Source: Candidatus Eiseniibacteriota bacterium (GTDB lineage Bacteria; Eisenbacteria; RBG-16-71-46). From it: a stretch of DNA of 64,000 nucleotides. The stretch covers positions 224,001 to 288,000 of the forward strand of contig OY970178.1 of assembly GCA_963707915.1 (NCBI GenBank). The letters are read 5' to 3'. Below are positions 12,701 to 18,700 of this stretch, piece after piece. Position numbers: made by a program. Numbering within the stretch: the stretch's first letter is position 1; every line of letters starts with the position of its first letter.

Positions 12701-15700
12701 CTCCTGCGGCTCGAGCTTCTGGAGCCGTTCCAGCCCGGCGCGTTTGAGCACCCGCGCCACCGTTGCCCGCGGACGCTTCAGGTCCCGGGCGATCTGCGGC
12801 CCGGTCATCCTCGTGCGCCGCAGCAGCAGGATCATCTCCCGCCATTCGATCGGGGTCGCGTGGGGGTGGCGCCGAGGCCGCGAGCTGCGGTCCTGCAGGC
12901 TGGCCGAGTCCTCGGCCTGGTAGCGGCCCAGCCACTTGTGGGCCGTCCGGCGGCTGATCCCTGCGGCCGTGGCCGCTCGGGTCACGCTCCAGCCCGACTC
13001 CCGTACCCGGCCAACAAGCAGTGCTCGACTGGCAGGGCAGGTCCGTGCTCCACTGTGGAGGTTCATCCGGGGTTCCTCGCTGGTCAGACGTTGACGGCTT
13101 CGAACACCACCAACATCTGTCAGAAGGACCCCGGTTGAACAGTCTCAACCTGTGAACAACCTAGTGAGACTCCACACCTAGGCCGTGAAGGAACCAGACC
13201 TTGCTGTCTCCCATGGTCGTCACGACCAGGTCGAGGTGGCCGTCTCCGTCGAAGTCGGCGATGGCGATTCCGACGGGATGGGGGCCGACGGTGTGGAACT
13301 GTGGCGGGCCGAAGGTGCCATCGCCGATGCCGCCGCTTCCGCCGCCGAGCATCACGGCGATCGTGTTGTTGACTCCGCCGTCCTGGGCCTCTGACTGGCA
13401 GGCGACCAGGTCCAGGATGCCGTCGCCGTTCAGGTCGGCGAGCTCCACGCGGTTCGTGCGAGTGCCCACGGCCTGCAGCGTCGCCGGAGCGAACCAGGCC
13501 GGCTGGTCGCAAGGTGCGGACGCGCTGCCCGTCGGCGACAGCAGGCCGGTGCCGGCGAGCAGGCAGAAGGTCAGGAGCGTGGCGATGGAATGGAAGATGT
13601 TCCGCATGGTCGGCCTCCGCGCGTTCAGGGACAGGGGCGATCCCCGCTGGTCACCCAAGTACAGCATAGGACCGGCGGGAGCCGTCCGAAACCGGATTCT
13701 CGGCGCTGATGGCGGGGAGGCACGTCCGGTCCCGGCTGCGGGCACGACCCCCGCCCACTAGTGTATATTCCGACAGCCCATGACCTTCCAACCGAGGCCC
13801 GCCGCATGAACCCGGTCGCCGACTCTCCCGCGCTCCAGCCGCCGTCCGATCTCAACCCCCGCCCCGAGCCGGTGCTCGACTTTCCCGACCGCGAGCTGGG
13901 GGAGATGACGCCGGCGGACTACGACACGCTGGGCTTCATGTCGGGGCTCGAGGTCCACCAGCAGATCGTCACCCGCGGCAAGCTCTTCTGCCGCTGCCCG
14001 GCCGGCCGGCGCGTCACCCGGGTGGACGCCGAGGTGCTGCGCCACATGCGCCCCACGCTCTCGGAGCTGGGCGAGTACGACGGCTGCGCGCTGATGGAGT
14101 TCAAGACCCGCAAGGAGATCGTCTACCTGCTCGAGCGGGGCACCGTCTGCACCTACGAGATCGACGACACGCCGCCCTTCCCGATGGACGACGAGGCGGT
14201 GCGCGTCGCCCTCGAGATCGCCCTGCTCTTCGGCCTGAACCTGGTCTCCGAGCTGCACGTGATGCGCAAGCAGTACCTGGACGGCTCGATCCCGACCGGC
14301 TTCCAGCGCACGGCGATGATGGGGCTCGCCGGGAGCATCCCGTTCCGGGTGCCCGAGCTGGGGGTGGACCGCGAACTGCGCATCCGCCAGTACTCGCTCG
14401 AGGAGGACTCCTGCCGCGAGGTCTCCGACGTCGGGCACCGCATCACCTTCCGCACCGACCGGCTGGGGATGCCGCTGATCGAGACGGTGACCGAGCCCGA
14501 CCTGCTCACGCCCTTCGAGGTCGCGGCCGGTGGCCGCCTGCTGGCCCGCGTGGCGCGCGCCTCGGGCAAGGTGCGGCGCGGGGCCGGCGCGGCGCGCCAG
14601 GACACCAACGTGTCGGTCGCCGGCGGCCGGCGGGTCGAGATCAAGGGCGTGGGCAACCACCGGCACCTGCCGCTGCTCACGCACAACGAGGCCTTCCGGC
14701 AGCTGAACCTGCTGCGGGTCCGGGCCGAGCTGCGGCGCCGCGGGGTGAAGGCCGAGGCGCTGGCGGTCCCCGACGGGCCGCGGCCCTGGGAGCGCTCGCC
14801 GCTGGTCGTGCATGCGGGCCCCATGCTCCGGCGCTCCGAGTACATGCCGCTGCGCGAGGCGCGCGAGCGGGGCGACACGGTGGTGGCGCTGGCGCTGCCC
14901 GGCTTCGGCGGTCTGCTGTCGCGGCCCACGCAGCCGGGCGTCACCTTCGCCCGCGAGTTCGCCGACCGCGTCCGGGTGATAGCCTGCCTCACGGCGCGCC
15001 CGTTCATGATCCACTCCGACCTGACCGACTACGGCCTGACGCCCGCCGAATGGCGCGCGCTGCGCAAGAGCCTGCGCGCCGGGCCGGCCGACGCCACCGT
15101 GGTGTTGTGGGGCACCGAGCAGGACGTGGAGACGGCGGTGCGCGAGGTGTTCCTGCGCGCGCGCGACGCGCTGGTCGGAGTCCCGGCGGAGACGCGACAG
15201 TCGTTCTCGGACGGGACCAACGGGTTCGAGCGCATCCTGCCGGGAGCCGACCGCATGTACCCCGACACCGACACGCCGCCGAAGGCCATCCCCGAGGAGT
15301 GGGTGGTCGAGATCACCGCGCGCCTGTCCGAGCGTCCCTGGGTCCGGGAGGAGCGCTACCGCGCCCTCGGGCTGTCCGAGGAGCTGGCGAACCGCCTGGC
15401 GGTCGCCACCGGGACCGCGGACCTCTTCGACGCGCTCGCCGTGCCGGTCGGGCCGGCCGCGGCGCGCGTGGCGGGGGCGCTGCTCAAGCGCCCGGCGCGG
15501 TGGCGCCGGCGGCGGTCCGGAGAGGCGCCGGCCAGCGCGGAGCGCCTGCAGCCGCTGGTGGCGGCCTTCGTGCGGGGCGAGTTGCGGCCGGAGGGCTTCG
15601 AGCGCGCGATCGAGCGGGCGCTGGTCGAACCGGGGCGCACGGTGGTGGAGCTGATCGAGGCCGTGCGGCCGCGGGCGGGCGACGCCGAGGCGGCCGCCCG

Positions 15701-18700
15701 CAGCATCGCCGCGGCGGTCGAGCGCTGCGCCGGGCAGCCGGAGCGCCCGCGGTCGAGCCTGGTGCGCTGGACCATGGGGCTGGTGATGCGGGACCTGGTC
15801 GGGCGCGTGGATCCGCGCGAGCTGCAGGCGCGGCTCGAAGCGGCGCTCGCGGCCCGCGAGATCGGGGTGACGCGATGAGCGACGATCGCTACAAGGGCTA
15901 CCGTGACCCCTGCCTGTCGGTGCTGAAGCGCTTCGACGTGACCGTGTGGTGCGAGCTGCGCGCCCGCACCACGCGCGGCGACTTCGAGGGCCTGCTGCTC
16001 CCGCGCTCGGAGACCGCCGACCCGCTGCACCTGGTGCTCAAGCTGCCGACCGGCTACAACGTCGGCCTGCGCCACGACACCGTGACCGGGCTCGAGAAGA
16101 TCGGCTACCGCGAGGCGCACTACCAGATCCCCGAGCGCCAGTTCCCGGTGAACCCCTCGATGCCGCGGGTGAAGCTGCTGGGCACCGGCGGCACGATCGC
16201 CTCGCGGCTCGACTACCGCACCGGTGCGGTCATCCCCGCCTTCAGCCCCGGCGAGCTCTACGGTTCGGTGCCGGAACTGGCGGACATCTGCAACCTCGAG
16301 ACCGAGAAGCTCTTCGGCGTGTTCTCGGAGAACATGGGACCGGAGCAGTACATCGTGCTGGCCGAGCGGATCGGCGAGGCCATCCGCGACGGTTGGGACG
16401 GCGTCGTCGTCGGCCACGGCACCGACACCATGCACCACACCGCCGCGGCGCTCTCGTTCATGGTCCAGCGCTCGCCGGTGCCGATCATCATGGTGGGCAG
16501 CCAGCGCTCCTCCGACCGGCCCTCGTCGGACGCGGCCCAGAACCTGATCAGCGCGACCTGGGCCGCCGCCCACGGTCCCATCGCCGAGGTCATGGTGTGC
16601 ATGTTCGGCCCGACCTCGGACCGCTACAACCTGCTGCACCGCGGCACGCGGGTGCGCAAGATGCACACCTCCTACCGCAGCACCTTCCGCACGCTGGGGG
16701 ACATCCCGCTGGCGATGGTCGAGCGCGGGAAGCTCACGCCGCTCAAGGAGGACTGGGCGCCCCGGCGCAAGGACCGCGAGGTCACGGTGCAGGCGGTGTT
16801 CGAGGAGCGCGTCACCATCGTCTACTACTACCCGAACATGAATCCCGACCTGATCGACGCGCTGGTGGAGAAGGGCTACAAGGGCATCGTCATCGCGGGC
16901 ACCGGCCTGGGGCACGTGAACCGCAAGATCTACCCGGCGCTCGATCGCGCGTGCAAGGCCGGCGTGCTGATCTTCATGGCGGTGCAGACGCTCTGGGGCT
17001 TCGTGCAGATGTACGTCTACGAGACCGGCCGCGAGATCCTCGAGCTGGGCGTCACCCCGCTGGCGAACATGCTGCCCGAGGTGGCCTACATCAAGCTGGG
17101 CTGGGCGCTGGGCGTGCATCCCGACGATCCCGAGGCGGCGCGGCGCCTCATGATCACGCCGATCGCCGGCGAGACCACCGAGCGCGAGCCGCACGACGGC
17201 TACCTGGTGTTCCAGGGAGGCGTTCCCGAGATCCAGGAGTTCCTGGGCAAGGTCTGGAAGTGAACCGACAAGGACGGATGGCCGCATGAAGCCGACGACG
17301 ATGCCAGTGACCGAAGCGAGACCGGAACCGCAGACGGGGGGCACGGGGGCCGCGGCGCCGAGGTTGACGGCCTGCCTGCTCGAGCGCGAGATCGGCCGGC
17401 CGGCCGCGGCCTGGACGGTGGACGACCTGCTGGCGCTCGCCGCCGGGCGCGGCGTGCGCCTGGTGAGCCTGATGCACGTGGGCGGCGACGGCTGCCTCAA
17501 GGTCCTGGACTTCGTGCCGCAGAGCCGCGAACACCTGCGCGACATCCTCTCCGGGGGCGAGCGGGCCGACGGCTCGAGCCTGTTCGCCGGGCTCGGTCTC
17601 GAGGTCGGGGCCTCGGACATCCTGCTGCGGCCGCGCGTCGAGACCGCATTCCTCGACCCGTTCGCGGCCCAGCCCACGCTGGCCTTGCTGTGCGGACACG
17701 CGGGGCGCGACGGCGACAGCCTGCCCCAGTCGCCCGACACCATCGTGCGGCGGGCCGCCGCGCGGACGGCGAGCGAACTGGACGTCGACCTGCACGCGCT
17801 GGGCGAGGTCGAGTACTTCCTCGGCCGTCGCGCGGGCGAGGAGGACGCCTACGGCGCGAACGACCGCGGCTACCACGCCACCTCGCCGTTCGTCTTCGGC
17901 GAGGCGCTGCGGCGCGAGGCCATGGCCCTGCTGGCCGAGATCGGCGTGCCGGTCAAGTACGGGCACAGCGAGGTGGGCTACGTCCAGGCCACCGAGTCGG
18001 ACGGGTACATCTGGGAGCAGCACGAGATCGAGCTCGGGCTCGCCCCGCTCGCCGCCGCCGCGGACGCGGTGGTGCTCACGCACTGGGTGCTGCGCAACCT
18101 CGCCTACCGCGAGGGCATGCGCTGCAGCTTCGATCCGATCCTGCGCCGCGGTCACGCCGGCACCGGCCTGCATTTCCATTTCTCGCCGGTCCGCGACGGG
18201 GCCCACCTCGGCGGGCGCGGTGCGGACGGGACGCTGAGCGCGCCCGCGCAGTGGCTGATCGCCGGGCTGGTGCGCATGGGCGGGGCGCTGATGGCGTTCG
18301 GCAACCGCACCGAGGGCTCGCTCATCCGCCTCACGCAGGCCAAGGAGGCGCCCAACACCATCGTCTGGGGCGAGTTCGACCGCAGCGCGCTGGTGCGGCT
18401 GCCGATCGTGGCGACGACCACCGACGGCCGCGCGGTCAGCCCGCCGACCATCGAGTTCCGGCTGCCCGACGGTTCGGCCCACCCGCACCTGCTGCTCGCG
18501 GGCGTCGCCCAGGTGATGATCGAGGCGCGCTCGGTCGGGCACCTCGAGGCGTTGCTCGAGCGCACCTCGGTGAAGGCGCTCAAGCGCGGGGCCGGGACCG
18601 CCACGCCCGTGCCGACGCGGTTCCTGGAGGTGGCGCAGGCGCTCCAGGCGAGCCGCTCCGCGCTCGAGGCCGGCGGGGTCTTCCCGCCGGTGCTGCTGGA

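Follow-up and report, generated by a model that had tools for sequence, protein, structure and literature searches.

An archaeal-type GatE-GatD amidotransferase pair in a GlnRS-bearing bacterium belongs to a broad bacterial clade with a possible role in asparagine supply

GatDE is described in the abstract of PMC2811023, and again in a passage of PMC9499178 (2022), as an amidotransferase found only in archaea, as the initial annotation of this DNA had said of the literature. Every characterised GatDE is, according to a statement in PMC2811023, specific for Glu-tRNA(Gln), and passages in both papers have the enzyme recognising a tRNA(Gln) with an A1-U72 first pair. The co-evolution of GatDE with archaeal tRNA(Gln) is then taken, in one part of PMC9499178, as the reason that archaea have never acquired GlnRS. 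A second described system is the GatCAB of Deinococcus and Thermus; as the abstract of PMC4206432 summarises, it serves tRNA-dependent asparagine synthesis alone, in a setting where both GlnRS and AsnRS are present.

The window analysed here, a 64,000-nucleotide stretch (positions 224,001–288,000) of a Candidatus Eiseniibacteriota bacterium contig (OY970178.1), contains a gatE-gatD pair (Table 1). It shares with the solved archaeal enzymes of Pyrococcus abyssi (PDB 1ZQ1) and Methanothermobacter thermautotrophicus (with tRNA(Gln), PDB 2D6F) the same two subunits, domain builds and conserved stretches, and its chemistry is presumably the same. By analogy with those structures, GatD, an asparaginase-type hydrolase, would release ammonia from Gln or Asn; GatE would phosphorylate, with ATP, the side-chain carboxyl of an acidic amino acid carried on the wrong tRNA, and would then amidate this activated carboxyl using the channelled ammonia. 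The differences lie in the setting: here the host is a bacterium with GlnRS whose tRNA(Gln) begins with U1-A72 rather than A1-U72, the gene order is gatE-gatD rather than gatD-gatE or unlinked, and sequence identity is only 35–48%. Moreover, the bacterial enzyme is not universal but dispensable and patchily distributed.

Table 1. Features of the gatE-gatD locus, in window coordinates
Feature	Position	Strand	Description
gatE	13806-15878	+	GatE subunit, 690 aa; predicted kinase/transamidase with tRNA-binding tail; open frame
gatD	15875-17263	+	GatD subunit, 462 aa; predicted asparaginase-like ammonia donor; open frame
ATGA overlap	15875-15878	+	gatE stop/gatD start, 4 nt, read from the sequence; labelled translational coupling
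GS-like gene	17286-18728	+	Divergent member of the glutamine-synthetase family, 480 aa; 23 nt after gatD; Pfam Gln-synt_C 119 bits

The intact, overlapping operon that had been annotated is borne out: the gatE translation has no internal stop, the gatD frame is likewise whole although the assembly shows frameshifts elsewhere, and the ATGA junction is present. The pair lies inside a single contig of 3,623,634 bases, and the GC content of the region (0.67–0.76) is that of its flanks and of the genome. The region upstream includes an IS481 transposase, 740 nt away. Downstream, the GS-like gene scores far below every NCBIfam GS cut-off and is likely an operon partner of gatED within this family of the phylum; one RNA-library contig, weak evidence, spans gatD and the GS-like gene in a ~90% identical relative. 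GatD matches all three expected Pfam families (GatD_N, Asparaginase and Asparaginase_C) and exceeds the cut-offs of NCBIfam TIGR02153 (486.7 bits against 324) and NF003217 (479.1 against 310). The GatD stretches GTGGTIAS, HGTDTM and RKMHTS presumably hold the asparaginase-type catalytic Thr, Thr-Asp and Lys sites. Together with SQRSSDRPSSDA, they match the archaeal GatD chains (1zq1_A, 2d6f_A) residue for residue; the first of these chains aligns with GatD at 1.2e-114. GatE matches Pfam GatB_N (135.6 bits) and passes TIGR00134 over positions 38–681 (390.9 bits, cut-off 319.55), in keeping with a GatE build of GatB-like cradle plus AspRS-like insertion, helical domain and YqeY-like tail; it falls six bits short of NF003107 (449.6 against 456), and the Pfam GAD domain reported in close relatives is not reported for it at E≤0.001. 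It aligns with PDB 1zq1_C at 4e-88 over positions 38–670 and also with 2d6f_C. Synteny with a same-genus genome, G189, holds across the locus at 90% identity; against G189, gatD has a dN/dS of 0.044 and gatE one of 0.164.

Outside the window, the relatives of GatD were assessed on the best 80 of at least 591 confirmed loci. All 80 carry bacterial record titles, at 66–83% identity, and the clade bears at least 16 NCBI phylum names, both in keeping with the earlier description of a well-conserved, many-phylum bacterial group; the gatE-gatD pair sits on bacterial contigs as long as 8 Mb. The linkage of gatE to gatD stands as well, its counts shifting from 70 linked and 10 cut or missing to 71 with gatE upstream, seven that end at a contig edge and two (L059 and L071) in which gatE is absent there. 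Patchy presence within the phylum of this bacterium is similarly upheld, at 28 of 206 genomes (23 of the 121 high-quality ones) in place of 23 of 205, and GatD may be present or absent even within one genus. No neighbour is conserved beyond the pair itself, and the bacterial clade may have spread patchily over phyla as a self-contained two-gene module. That automatic annotation already names such bacterial genes GatD and GatE holds for both NCBI and JGI. From the ATGA coupling and the gatE linkage we infer that GatD and GatE form one complex; given the family cut-offs, the motifs, the low dN/dS and the GatD identity retained across phyla, GatDE looks functional.

The nearest relative of the bacterial clade in both subunit trees is GatDE of the Asgard type (depositor names Loki-, Thor-, Hel-, Heimdall-, Odin-, Sigyn-, Hod-, Frey- and Jordarchaeota). 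In the GatD tree, rooted on asparaginases, 26 bacterial rows (SH-aLRT 100) are nested in a clade of 47 rows (99), whose remaining named members are Asgard apart from one Thermoplasmata and one Bathyarchaeota title; a rerun without the longest row gave the same outcome (25 bacterial rows, SH-aLRT 100). In the GatE tree, for which GatB served as root, a group of 24 bacterial rows (100) has 12 Asgard-type rows (97) as its sister, with support of 84 for their union, and the window's pair belongs to the bacterial branch in each tree. Gene order agrees with this grouping: gatE is upstream of gatD in 13/13 Asgard-type loci, as it is here, and among other archaeal-type loci it is downstream in 13 and missing from the flank in 11. 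While the core motifs of GatE are kept across 40 bacterial, 12 Asgard-type and 11 other archaeal sequences, YPDTD is found in all 40 and all 12 of the first two sets, the other 11 having YPETD or YPESD. Judged from these sequences, the bacterial clade groups with Asgard-type GatDE in ancestry and in gene order. It differs in standing on its own long stem (0.46–0.52 changes per site in GatD), in a GatD identity of only ~45–52% and in its hosts, which are bacteria with bacterial tRNA identity. The AU test does not reject a topology in which the bacteria branch outside the archaea as a whole (p-AU 0.096), and the direction of transfer is not proven.

The 3.6 Mb contig that carries the pair also encodes gatC-gatA-gatB, a GlnRS (676 bits), two GluRS, an AsnRS, AsnA (344 bits) and tRNA-Gln with both CUG and UUG anticodons, so that every co-resident gene named in the initial annotation is found there; AsnB-like genes are present in the genome too. 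The three routes to Gln-tRNA(Gln) counted from this inventory are correct nominally only. Both tRNA(Gln) genes and tRNA(Asn) have U1-A72 as first pair, and in this genome A1-U72 was found only in tRNA-Trp and in no tRNA(Gln); the bacterial GatDE would have to act on U1-A72 tRNAs. GatDE is not the sole Gln-tRNA(Gln) route of a GlnRS-less host here, GlnRS being present, and the genome departs from the Deinococcus/Thermus pattern of AsnRS plus amidotransferase without asparagine synthetase in having AsnA and AsnB-like genes. In this genome GatDE is accessory, being redundant with gatCAB, AsnA, AsnRS and GlnRS. Taken by itself, the window holds an unremarkable, redundant clade member; the value lies in the pattern across the clade.

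We read gatE-gatD as a working tRNA-dependent amidotransferase, most likely for asparagine supply and redundant in the window's genome, with a rough probability of 0.45 and with its substrate deduced from gene content. An asparagine role is favoured because GatDE and AsnA exclude one another, because asnA occupies the gatED site in one genome, because two genomes resemble Deinococcus and Thermus, because GlnRS co-occurs with GatDE, and because tRNA(Gln) and tRNA(Asn) have U1-A72 in common. Since the window's genome has AsnA and gatCAB, the argument rests on its relatives. The enzyme would convert Asp-tRNA(Asn) to Asn-tRNA(Asn), by analogy with GatCAB in Deinococcus and Thermus, and activity on Glu-tRNA(Gln) may also be kept.

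GatDE is nearly exclusive with AsnA. In the phylum of this bacterium, AsnA is found in 1/22 genomes with GatD versus 24/29 without it, and in other phyla in one of 50 with GatD; the genomes in these counts are related, and the counts overstate independence. The GatD/AsnA state flips within genera g51, g56 and g1 and within families f4 and f6. Against the exclusion, in genus g3 AsnA is also missing from two of the three genomes that lack GatD. In G186, of the same genus, asnA stands at the exact site that gatED occupies in G000 and G189 and is followed by the GS-like gene; in family f4 a GS-like gene common to both genomes precedes gatED in G056 and asnA in G053. Two genomes, G056 (99% complete) and G083 (92%), have GatDE and AsnRS with no AsnA, no AsnB at E≤1e-70 and no GatB at E≤1e-60. 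They match the Deinococcus/Thermus pattern of an amidotransferase kept beside GlnRS and AsnRS with no asparagine synthetase found, which we take as a working analogy. The enzymes themselves differ, GatE being a paralogue of GatB and GatD unrelated to GatA, and so does the synthetase background: archaeal-type AspRS (AspRS2) is over its cut-off in only one of 47 genomes (G052). The motif RDHGG, with its presumed marker His, occurs in all 15 main bacterial-type AspRS whatever the GatD, AsnA or GatB state. Neither the archaeal-type AspRS profile nor this comparison gave a sign of a dedicated non-discriminating AspRS. The gene-content patterns hint at asparagine rather than glutamine. Against an asparagine role stand the missing sign of such an AspRS, the Glu-tRNA(Gln) specificity of characterised GatDE, the retention of GatB in about half of the genomes (24/50 GatD-bearing genomes across phyla over cut-off, and 18/28 in this phylum) and the AsnB-family genes in 35/46 genomes of a set made up of four whole families (G081 excluded) and five hand-picked f1 genomes.

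The strong rival, held less likely than the asparagine reading, is that GatDE has the canonical role only and, as in archaea, turns Glu-tRNA(Gln) into Gln-tRNA(Gln), either providing a second route or correcting tRNA(Gln) that a GluRS has mischarged. It accords with the equivalog models that both subunits pass, with the action of every characterised GatDE on Glu-tRNA(Gln) (PMC2811023 and PMC9499178), and with genomic linkage, which points to Gln and not Asn: glnS adjoins gatED in 5/80 best loci, gltX does so as well in four of those (Gemmatimonadota loci with the order gltX - tRNA-Ser - gatE - gatD - glnS), and none of AsnRS, AspRS, AsnA or tRNA-Asn adjoins gatED in 160 loci. Yet GlnRS is found in 44/50 GatD-bearing genomes across phyla and, within this phylum, in 25/28 with GatD versus 86/178 without, which is contrary to the prediction of a needed Gln route; the AsnA exclusion is left without a reason, and the window's genome has no archaeal-style A1-U72 tRNA(Gln). 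The GluRS evidence cuts both ways at a position (Arg, Asn or Gly) that we take to be a marker, its meaning being assumed. In the window's genome the mischarging enzyme would be the second GluRS, and its product would be a substrate common with GatCAB; this second copy has Asn where the first has Arg, at a position that aligns with Gly in T. elongatus GluRS (PDB 2cfo), a non-discriminating enzyme. On the other side, Arg is found in all 44 readable primary GluRS of the phylum, including those of seven genomes with GatD and without GatB, and a second GluRS does not track the presence of GatDE.

A role away from tRNA or on another carrier, with the GS-like neighbour, appears improbable. In such a scheme the two would serve amide-nitrogen metabolism, e.g., asparagine or glutamine turnover, and the exclusion of AsnA would avoid a futile cycle. 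GatD is indeed an asparaginase homologue, and GS-like genes adjoin gatED in G000, G189, G146, G147, L028 and G056, the gatE-gatD-GS-like order being repeated in G189, G146, G147 and L028. The GS-like link is missing, though, from 79/80 best GatD loci, of other lineages (L028 alone has it, as the single case first annotated), gatE stays coupled to gatD in 71 of the 80, and GatE retains the full tRNA-handling build, tail included. That the pair was carried in by horizontal transfer and has no function, or that it is archaeal DNA misplaced in a bacterial assembly, is scarcely credible: the patchy, within-genus distribution, the lack of conserved neighbours and the nearby transposase would suit it, but it is contradicted by dN/dS of 0.04–0.16 over intact frames, by a single contig at its own GC, by the synteny with G189 and by the multi-megabase bacterial contigs.

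Returning to the asparagine reading, a fuller account, tentative and held at somewhat below even odds, is that the bacterial clade stems from one exchange with an Asgard-type lineage and was re-tuned to U1-A72 tRNAs, making asparagine on tRNA(Asn), interchangeably with AsnA and, in some bacteria (G056 and G083), as the sole asparagine route. What is new here is the Asgard-type alliance seen with both subunits, and a GatDE that is almost always beside GlnRS, nearly exclusive with AsnA and, in about half of its genomes, without GatB. Reviews use GatDE as an archaeal signature, which a large bacterial clade under selection undercuts; such a clade, beside GlnRS and facing U1-A72 tRNAs, is a natural experiment on change of tRNA identity by an amidotransferase. 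If the asparagine reading is true, GatDE would be neither archaea-only nor glutamine-only but would add to AsnA/AsnB and GatCAB a third enzymatic means of supplying asparagine, and metabolic reconstruction would change for many uncultured phyla, in which genomes like G056 would otherwise count as asparagine auxotrophs.

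The initial annotation's claim of an intact gatE-gatD pair of the GatDE type is borne out by frames, domains, family scores and structure matches alike. Pfam places GatB_N in the gatE frame and GatD_N with both asparaginase domains in the gatD frame; by NCBIfam, GatD scores well above both GatD cut-offs, and GatE above the TIGR00134 cut-off and six bits below that of NF003107. Among solved structures, the best alignments are to Pyrococcus abyssi (1ZQ1) and Methanothermobacter (2D6F), in both cases to the GatD and GatE chains, with conserved stretches intact. The GC content of the region (0.67–0.76) is that of its flanks, and the locus is syntenic with, and 90% identical to, that of the same-genus relative G189, with dN/dS values of 0.044 for gatD and 0.164 for gatE. 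Immediately upstream of gatE lies a block of ~3.8 kb, absent from G189, in which a transposase gene interrupts an FG-GAP repeat protein gene. The highest share of query words in any sequencing run was 0.16. In two RNA libraries from one freshwater-sediment study, contigs of a ~90%-identical relative span gatE and gatD, and a 4.5 kb contig of such a relative bridges gatD and the divergent glutamine-synthetase-family (GS-like) gene behind it; these are a weak hint of expression, DNA carry-over being possible and transcription of the relative's genes unproven.

Coordinates of the gatE-gatD pair and of other loci discussed (C1, contig of the present genome, G000; G186, same-genus relative)
Feature	Location	Strand	Description
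gatE	window 13806-15878	+	open frame, 690 aa
gatD	window 15875-17263	+	open frame, 462 aa; joined to gatE by ATGA overlap
GS-like gene	window 17286-18728	+	behind gatD
IS481/FG-GAP block	window 10078-13745	-	IS481-family transposase gene (12125-13066) within FG-GAP repeat protein gene (10078-12087 and 13161-13745)
glnS cluster (L019)	G000:C1:319227-323648		glnS, then gltX, tRNA-Gln(CUG), tRNA-Glu(CUC)
second GluRS (L021)	G000:C1:1917721-1920975		four frames, three frameshifts, zero stops
AsnB-like genes	G000:C1:1233486-1235232, 1547031-1548746		outside window; split over frames, one with in-frame TGA
asnA-GS-like locus (L241)	G186:C191:16500-21488 (3249-4988 within it)	-	asnA directly upstream of GS-like gene, genome without gatED

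The pair belongs, as an unremarkable member, to a very large bacterial clade of GatDE, conserved across phyla as had been claimed. When one genome per species was scanned, at least 591 GatD relatives were confirmed. The best 80 all bear bacterial titles at 66–83% identity; all 80 are metagenome-assembled or uncultured, and some lie on contigs 4 to 8 Mb long. Upstream of gatD, gatE is present in 71 of these loci, seven others being truncated at a contig end and two lacking gatE. Clustering of all ORFs within their 6 kb flanks revealed no recurrent neighbor other than gatE, the next-largest cluster comprising six loci of related lineages. The best 120 protein matches listed for GatE are GatE relatives (62–91% identity). 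Among the database proteins P0056, P0124 and P0070, two (969 and 943 aa) carry portions of GatE and GatD in a single frame and one (916 aa) has a helix-turn-helix domain ahead of GatE; these could be genuine fusions or artefacts of gene calling. Within its own phylum, Eisenbacteria, 28 of 206 genomes have GatD, as do 23 of the 121 of high quality, and its distribution is patchy down to the genus, five of the eight genomes of the present genus, G000 included, having it; the phylum tallies include one genome flagged as unpublished (G123), on which no conclusion hangs.

Both subunits and gene order link bacterial GatDE to Asgard-type GatDE, a connection new in this analysis. Among 150 GatD representatives at 50% identity, in which bacterial sequences fall into few rows, the nearest rows outside these are P0127, P0128 and P0130; named matches in a profile search from these three are nearly all Asgard archaea, with one Thermoplasmata and one Bathyarchaeota title, and the 12 named matches among relatives of P0125 are all bacterial. 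Quick trees (IQ-TREE for GatD), with SH-aLRT support only, were built with three asparaginases of the phylum as outgroup for GatD and four GatB sequences for GatE. In the former, 26 bacterial rows (SH-aLRT 100, stem 0.52) nest within a clade of 47 rows (99), in which the remaining named rows are the Asgard sequences from that profile search, with 30 unnamed archaeal representatives falling outside; dropping the longest row reproduced this result. In the latter, 24 bacterial rows (100) are sister to 12 Asgard-type rows (97), the two groups joining with a support of 84 and leaving 11 other archaeal rows outside. Gene order points the same way, gatE lying upstream of gatD, as in bacteria, in 13 of 13 Asgard-type metagenome loci, whereas in other archaeal-type loci gatE lies downstream of gatD (13) or outside the flank (11). 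A YPDTD motif is common to bacterial and Asgard-type GatE only, among the GatE rows compared. The tail motif G-x-x-A-x-G quoted in a passage of PMC2811023 is uninformative, occurring in 1/12 Asgard-type, 2/11 other archaeal and 0/39 bacterial rows in a segment equated with the paper's tail by assumption. Forcing bacteria outside all archaea costs 13.4 log-likelihood units, yet the resulting tree is not rejected (p-AU 0.096), and the direction of transfer is not proven.

As to function, bacterial GatDE and AsnA nearly exclude one another, an observation likewise new here. Across 51 genomes of the phylum (four whole families, minus G081, and ten genomes of family f1), AsnA is present in 1 of 22 genomes with GatD versus 24 of 29 without; in other phyla, where the sample consisted of 50 GatD-containing genomes with no GatD-lacking controls, it is present in one. 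The state flips inside three genera (g51, g56, g1) and two families (f4, f6). The exception, G185, and the present genome have a different, higher-scoring type of AsnA. In G186, which lacks GatDE, asnA occupies the place before the GS-like gene that gatE-gatD holds in G000 and G189, and in family f4 what follows a common GS-like gene is gatED in G056 but asnA in G053. Flanks common to gatED and asnA loci number one in f4 and none in f6 or f7. Since GS-like genes lie beside asnA in G057, G053, G069 and G186 alike, AsnA and the divergent GS-family ligase may form a functional pair. The near-exclusion favors tRNA-dependent asparagine synthesis, in which GatDE would turn Asp-tRNA(Asn) into Asn-tRNA(Asn), as the best current guess for the bacterial enzyme, to which we assign a probability of roughly 45%. 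Two genomes, G056 (99% complete) and G083 (92%), have GatDE and AsnRS with no AsnA, no AsnB at E<=1e-70 and no GatB at E<=1e-60.

Several points count against asparagine synthesis: a passage of PMC2811023 reports archaeal GatDE to be Glu-specific, AsnB paralogues are common in genomes of the phylum, G000 itself has AsnA and GatCAB, and in genus g3 two of three GatD-lacking genomes also lack AsnA. AsnRS was rejected as a discriminator because it is nearly universal (44 of 46 genomes of the phylum) and so gives no contrast. It occurs as two types among genomes G051–G104, scoring ~600–650 and ~445–470 bits on the asnS model, the lower-scoring type, which G000 has, also reaching ~290–310 bits on the archaeal-type AspRS model. 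A dedicated non-discriminating AspRS was not found, archaeal-type AspRS being above cut-off in 1 of 47 genomes, and the AspRS His marker gives no contrast either (RDHGG in all 15 main copies). In two GatD-lacking genomes (G186, locus L262; G069, locus L256), an additional AspRS of bacterial type has RDLGG or RNFGG instead.

A strong rival, to which we give a lower probability, is that bacterial GatDE plays its canonical role, making Gln-tRNA(Gln) from Glu-tRNA(Gln). Such an enzyme would be expected in genomes without GlnRS, and the reverse is observed: GlnRS is above cut-off in 42 of the 50 GatD-containing genomes of other phyla (two more have contig-end fragments) and, in the present phylum, occurs in 25/28 genomes with GatD versus 86/178 without. 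Coexistence with GlnRS is the rule for bacterial GatDE, another addition of this analysis; GatB is above cut-off in only 24 of the same 50 genomes and present in 18 of the 28. The canonical role does draw support from glnS, which adjoins gatED in 5 of the best 80 loci; in four Gemmatimonadota genomes (L036, L037, L038, L041) gatED is inserted between gltX and glnS, in the order gltX, tRNA-Ser, gatE, gatD, glnS. The primary GluRS speaks against it. At a position where the aligned residue in the T. elongatus enzyme, which is non-discriminating, is Gly, and which we take to mark discriminating versus non-discriminating tRNA charging, Arg is found in 44/44 readable copies of the phylum, including seven genomes with GatD and without GatB. 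Second-copy GluRS has Asn there in 4/4 readable cases regardless of GatD, while two more sequences fall short of the position; the residue, being constant within primary and within second copies, was discarded as a correlate of GatDE. Nor does the second copy track with GatDE, and it was set aside as a partner: family f1 mostly has two copies with or without GatD, and f4, f6, f7 and f13 have one.

Related genes of G000 were located on the window's host contig (single, 3.62 Mb, rated 94.8% complete), which encodes gatC-gatA-gatB, GlnRS, GluRS and AsnRS, as initially stated, together with AsnA and a bacterial-type AspRS. Its glnS cluster is tight, and glnS-gltX adjacency recurs in many genomes of the phylum. 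The second GluRS, whole in f1 relatives, retains its HIGH and KMSK motifs and has Asn where the first has Arg. Its decay was considered and dismissed: the AsnB-like genes show the same kind of splitting, so the breaks are read as assembly indels, which suggests that the single-contig assembly carries such errors. The first pair is U1-A72 in tRNA(Asn) as well as in both tRNA(Gln) genes, and no tRNA(Gln) of G000 has the archaeal A1-U72 pair. ARAGORN also calls tRNA-Ala, tRNA-Arg and tRNA-Gly of 83–99 nt at several places, some with poor acceptor stems, which in this 72% GC genome are probably false calls.

In G000, either role, asparagine or glutamine, would be redundant. The observation and reading of the initial annotation both stand, including its statement that the literature treats GatDE as archaeal only: passages of PMC2811023 and PMC9499178 deny it to bacteria, and our literature searches, one of which covered papers using the word GatDE since 2016 and was judged by titles and abstract openings, found no paper on bacterial GatDE. 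Its concession that automatic annotation already names such genes is equally correct, NCBI and JGI entries for these bacterial relatives being named GatE. The bacterial GatDE clade is annotated in databases, yet still denied in the papers searched.
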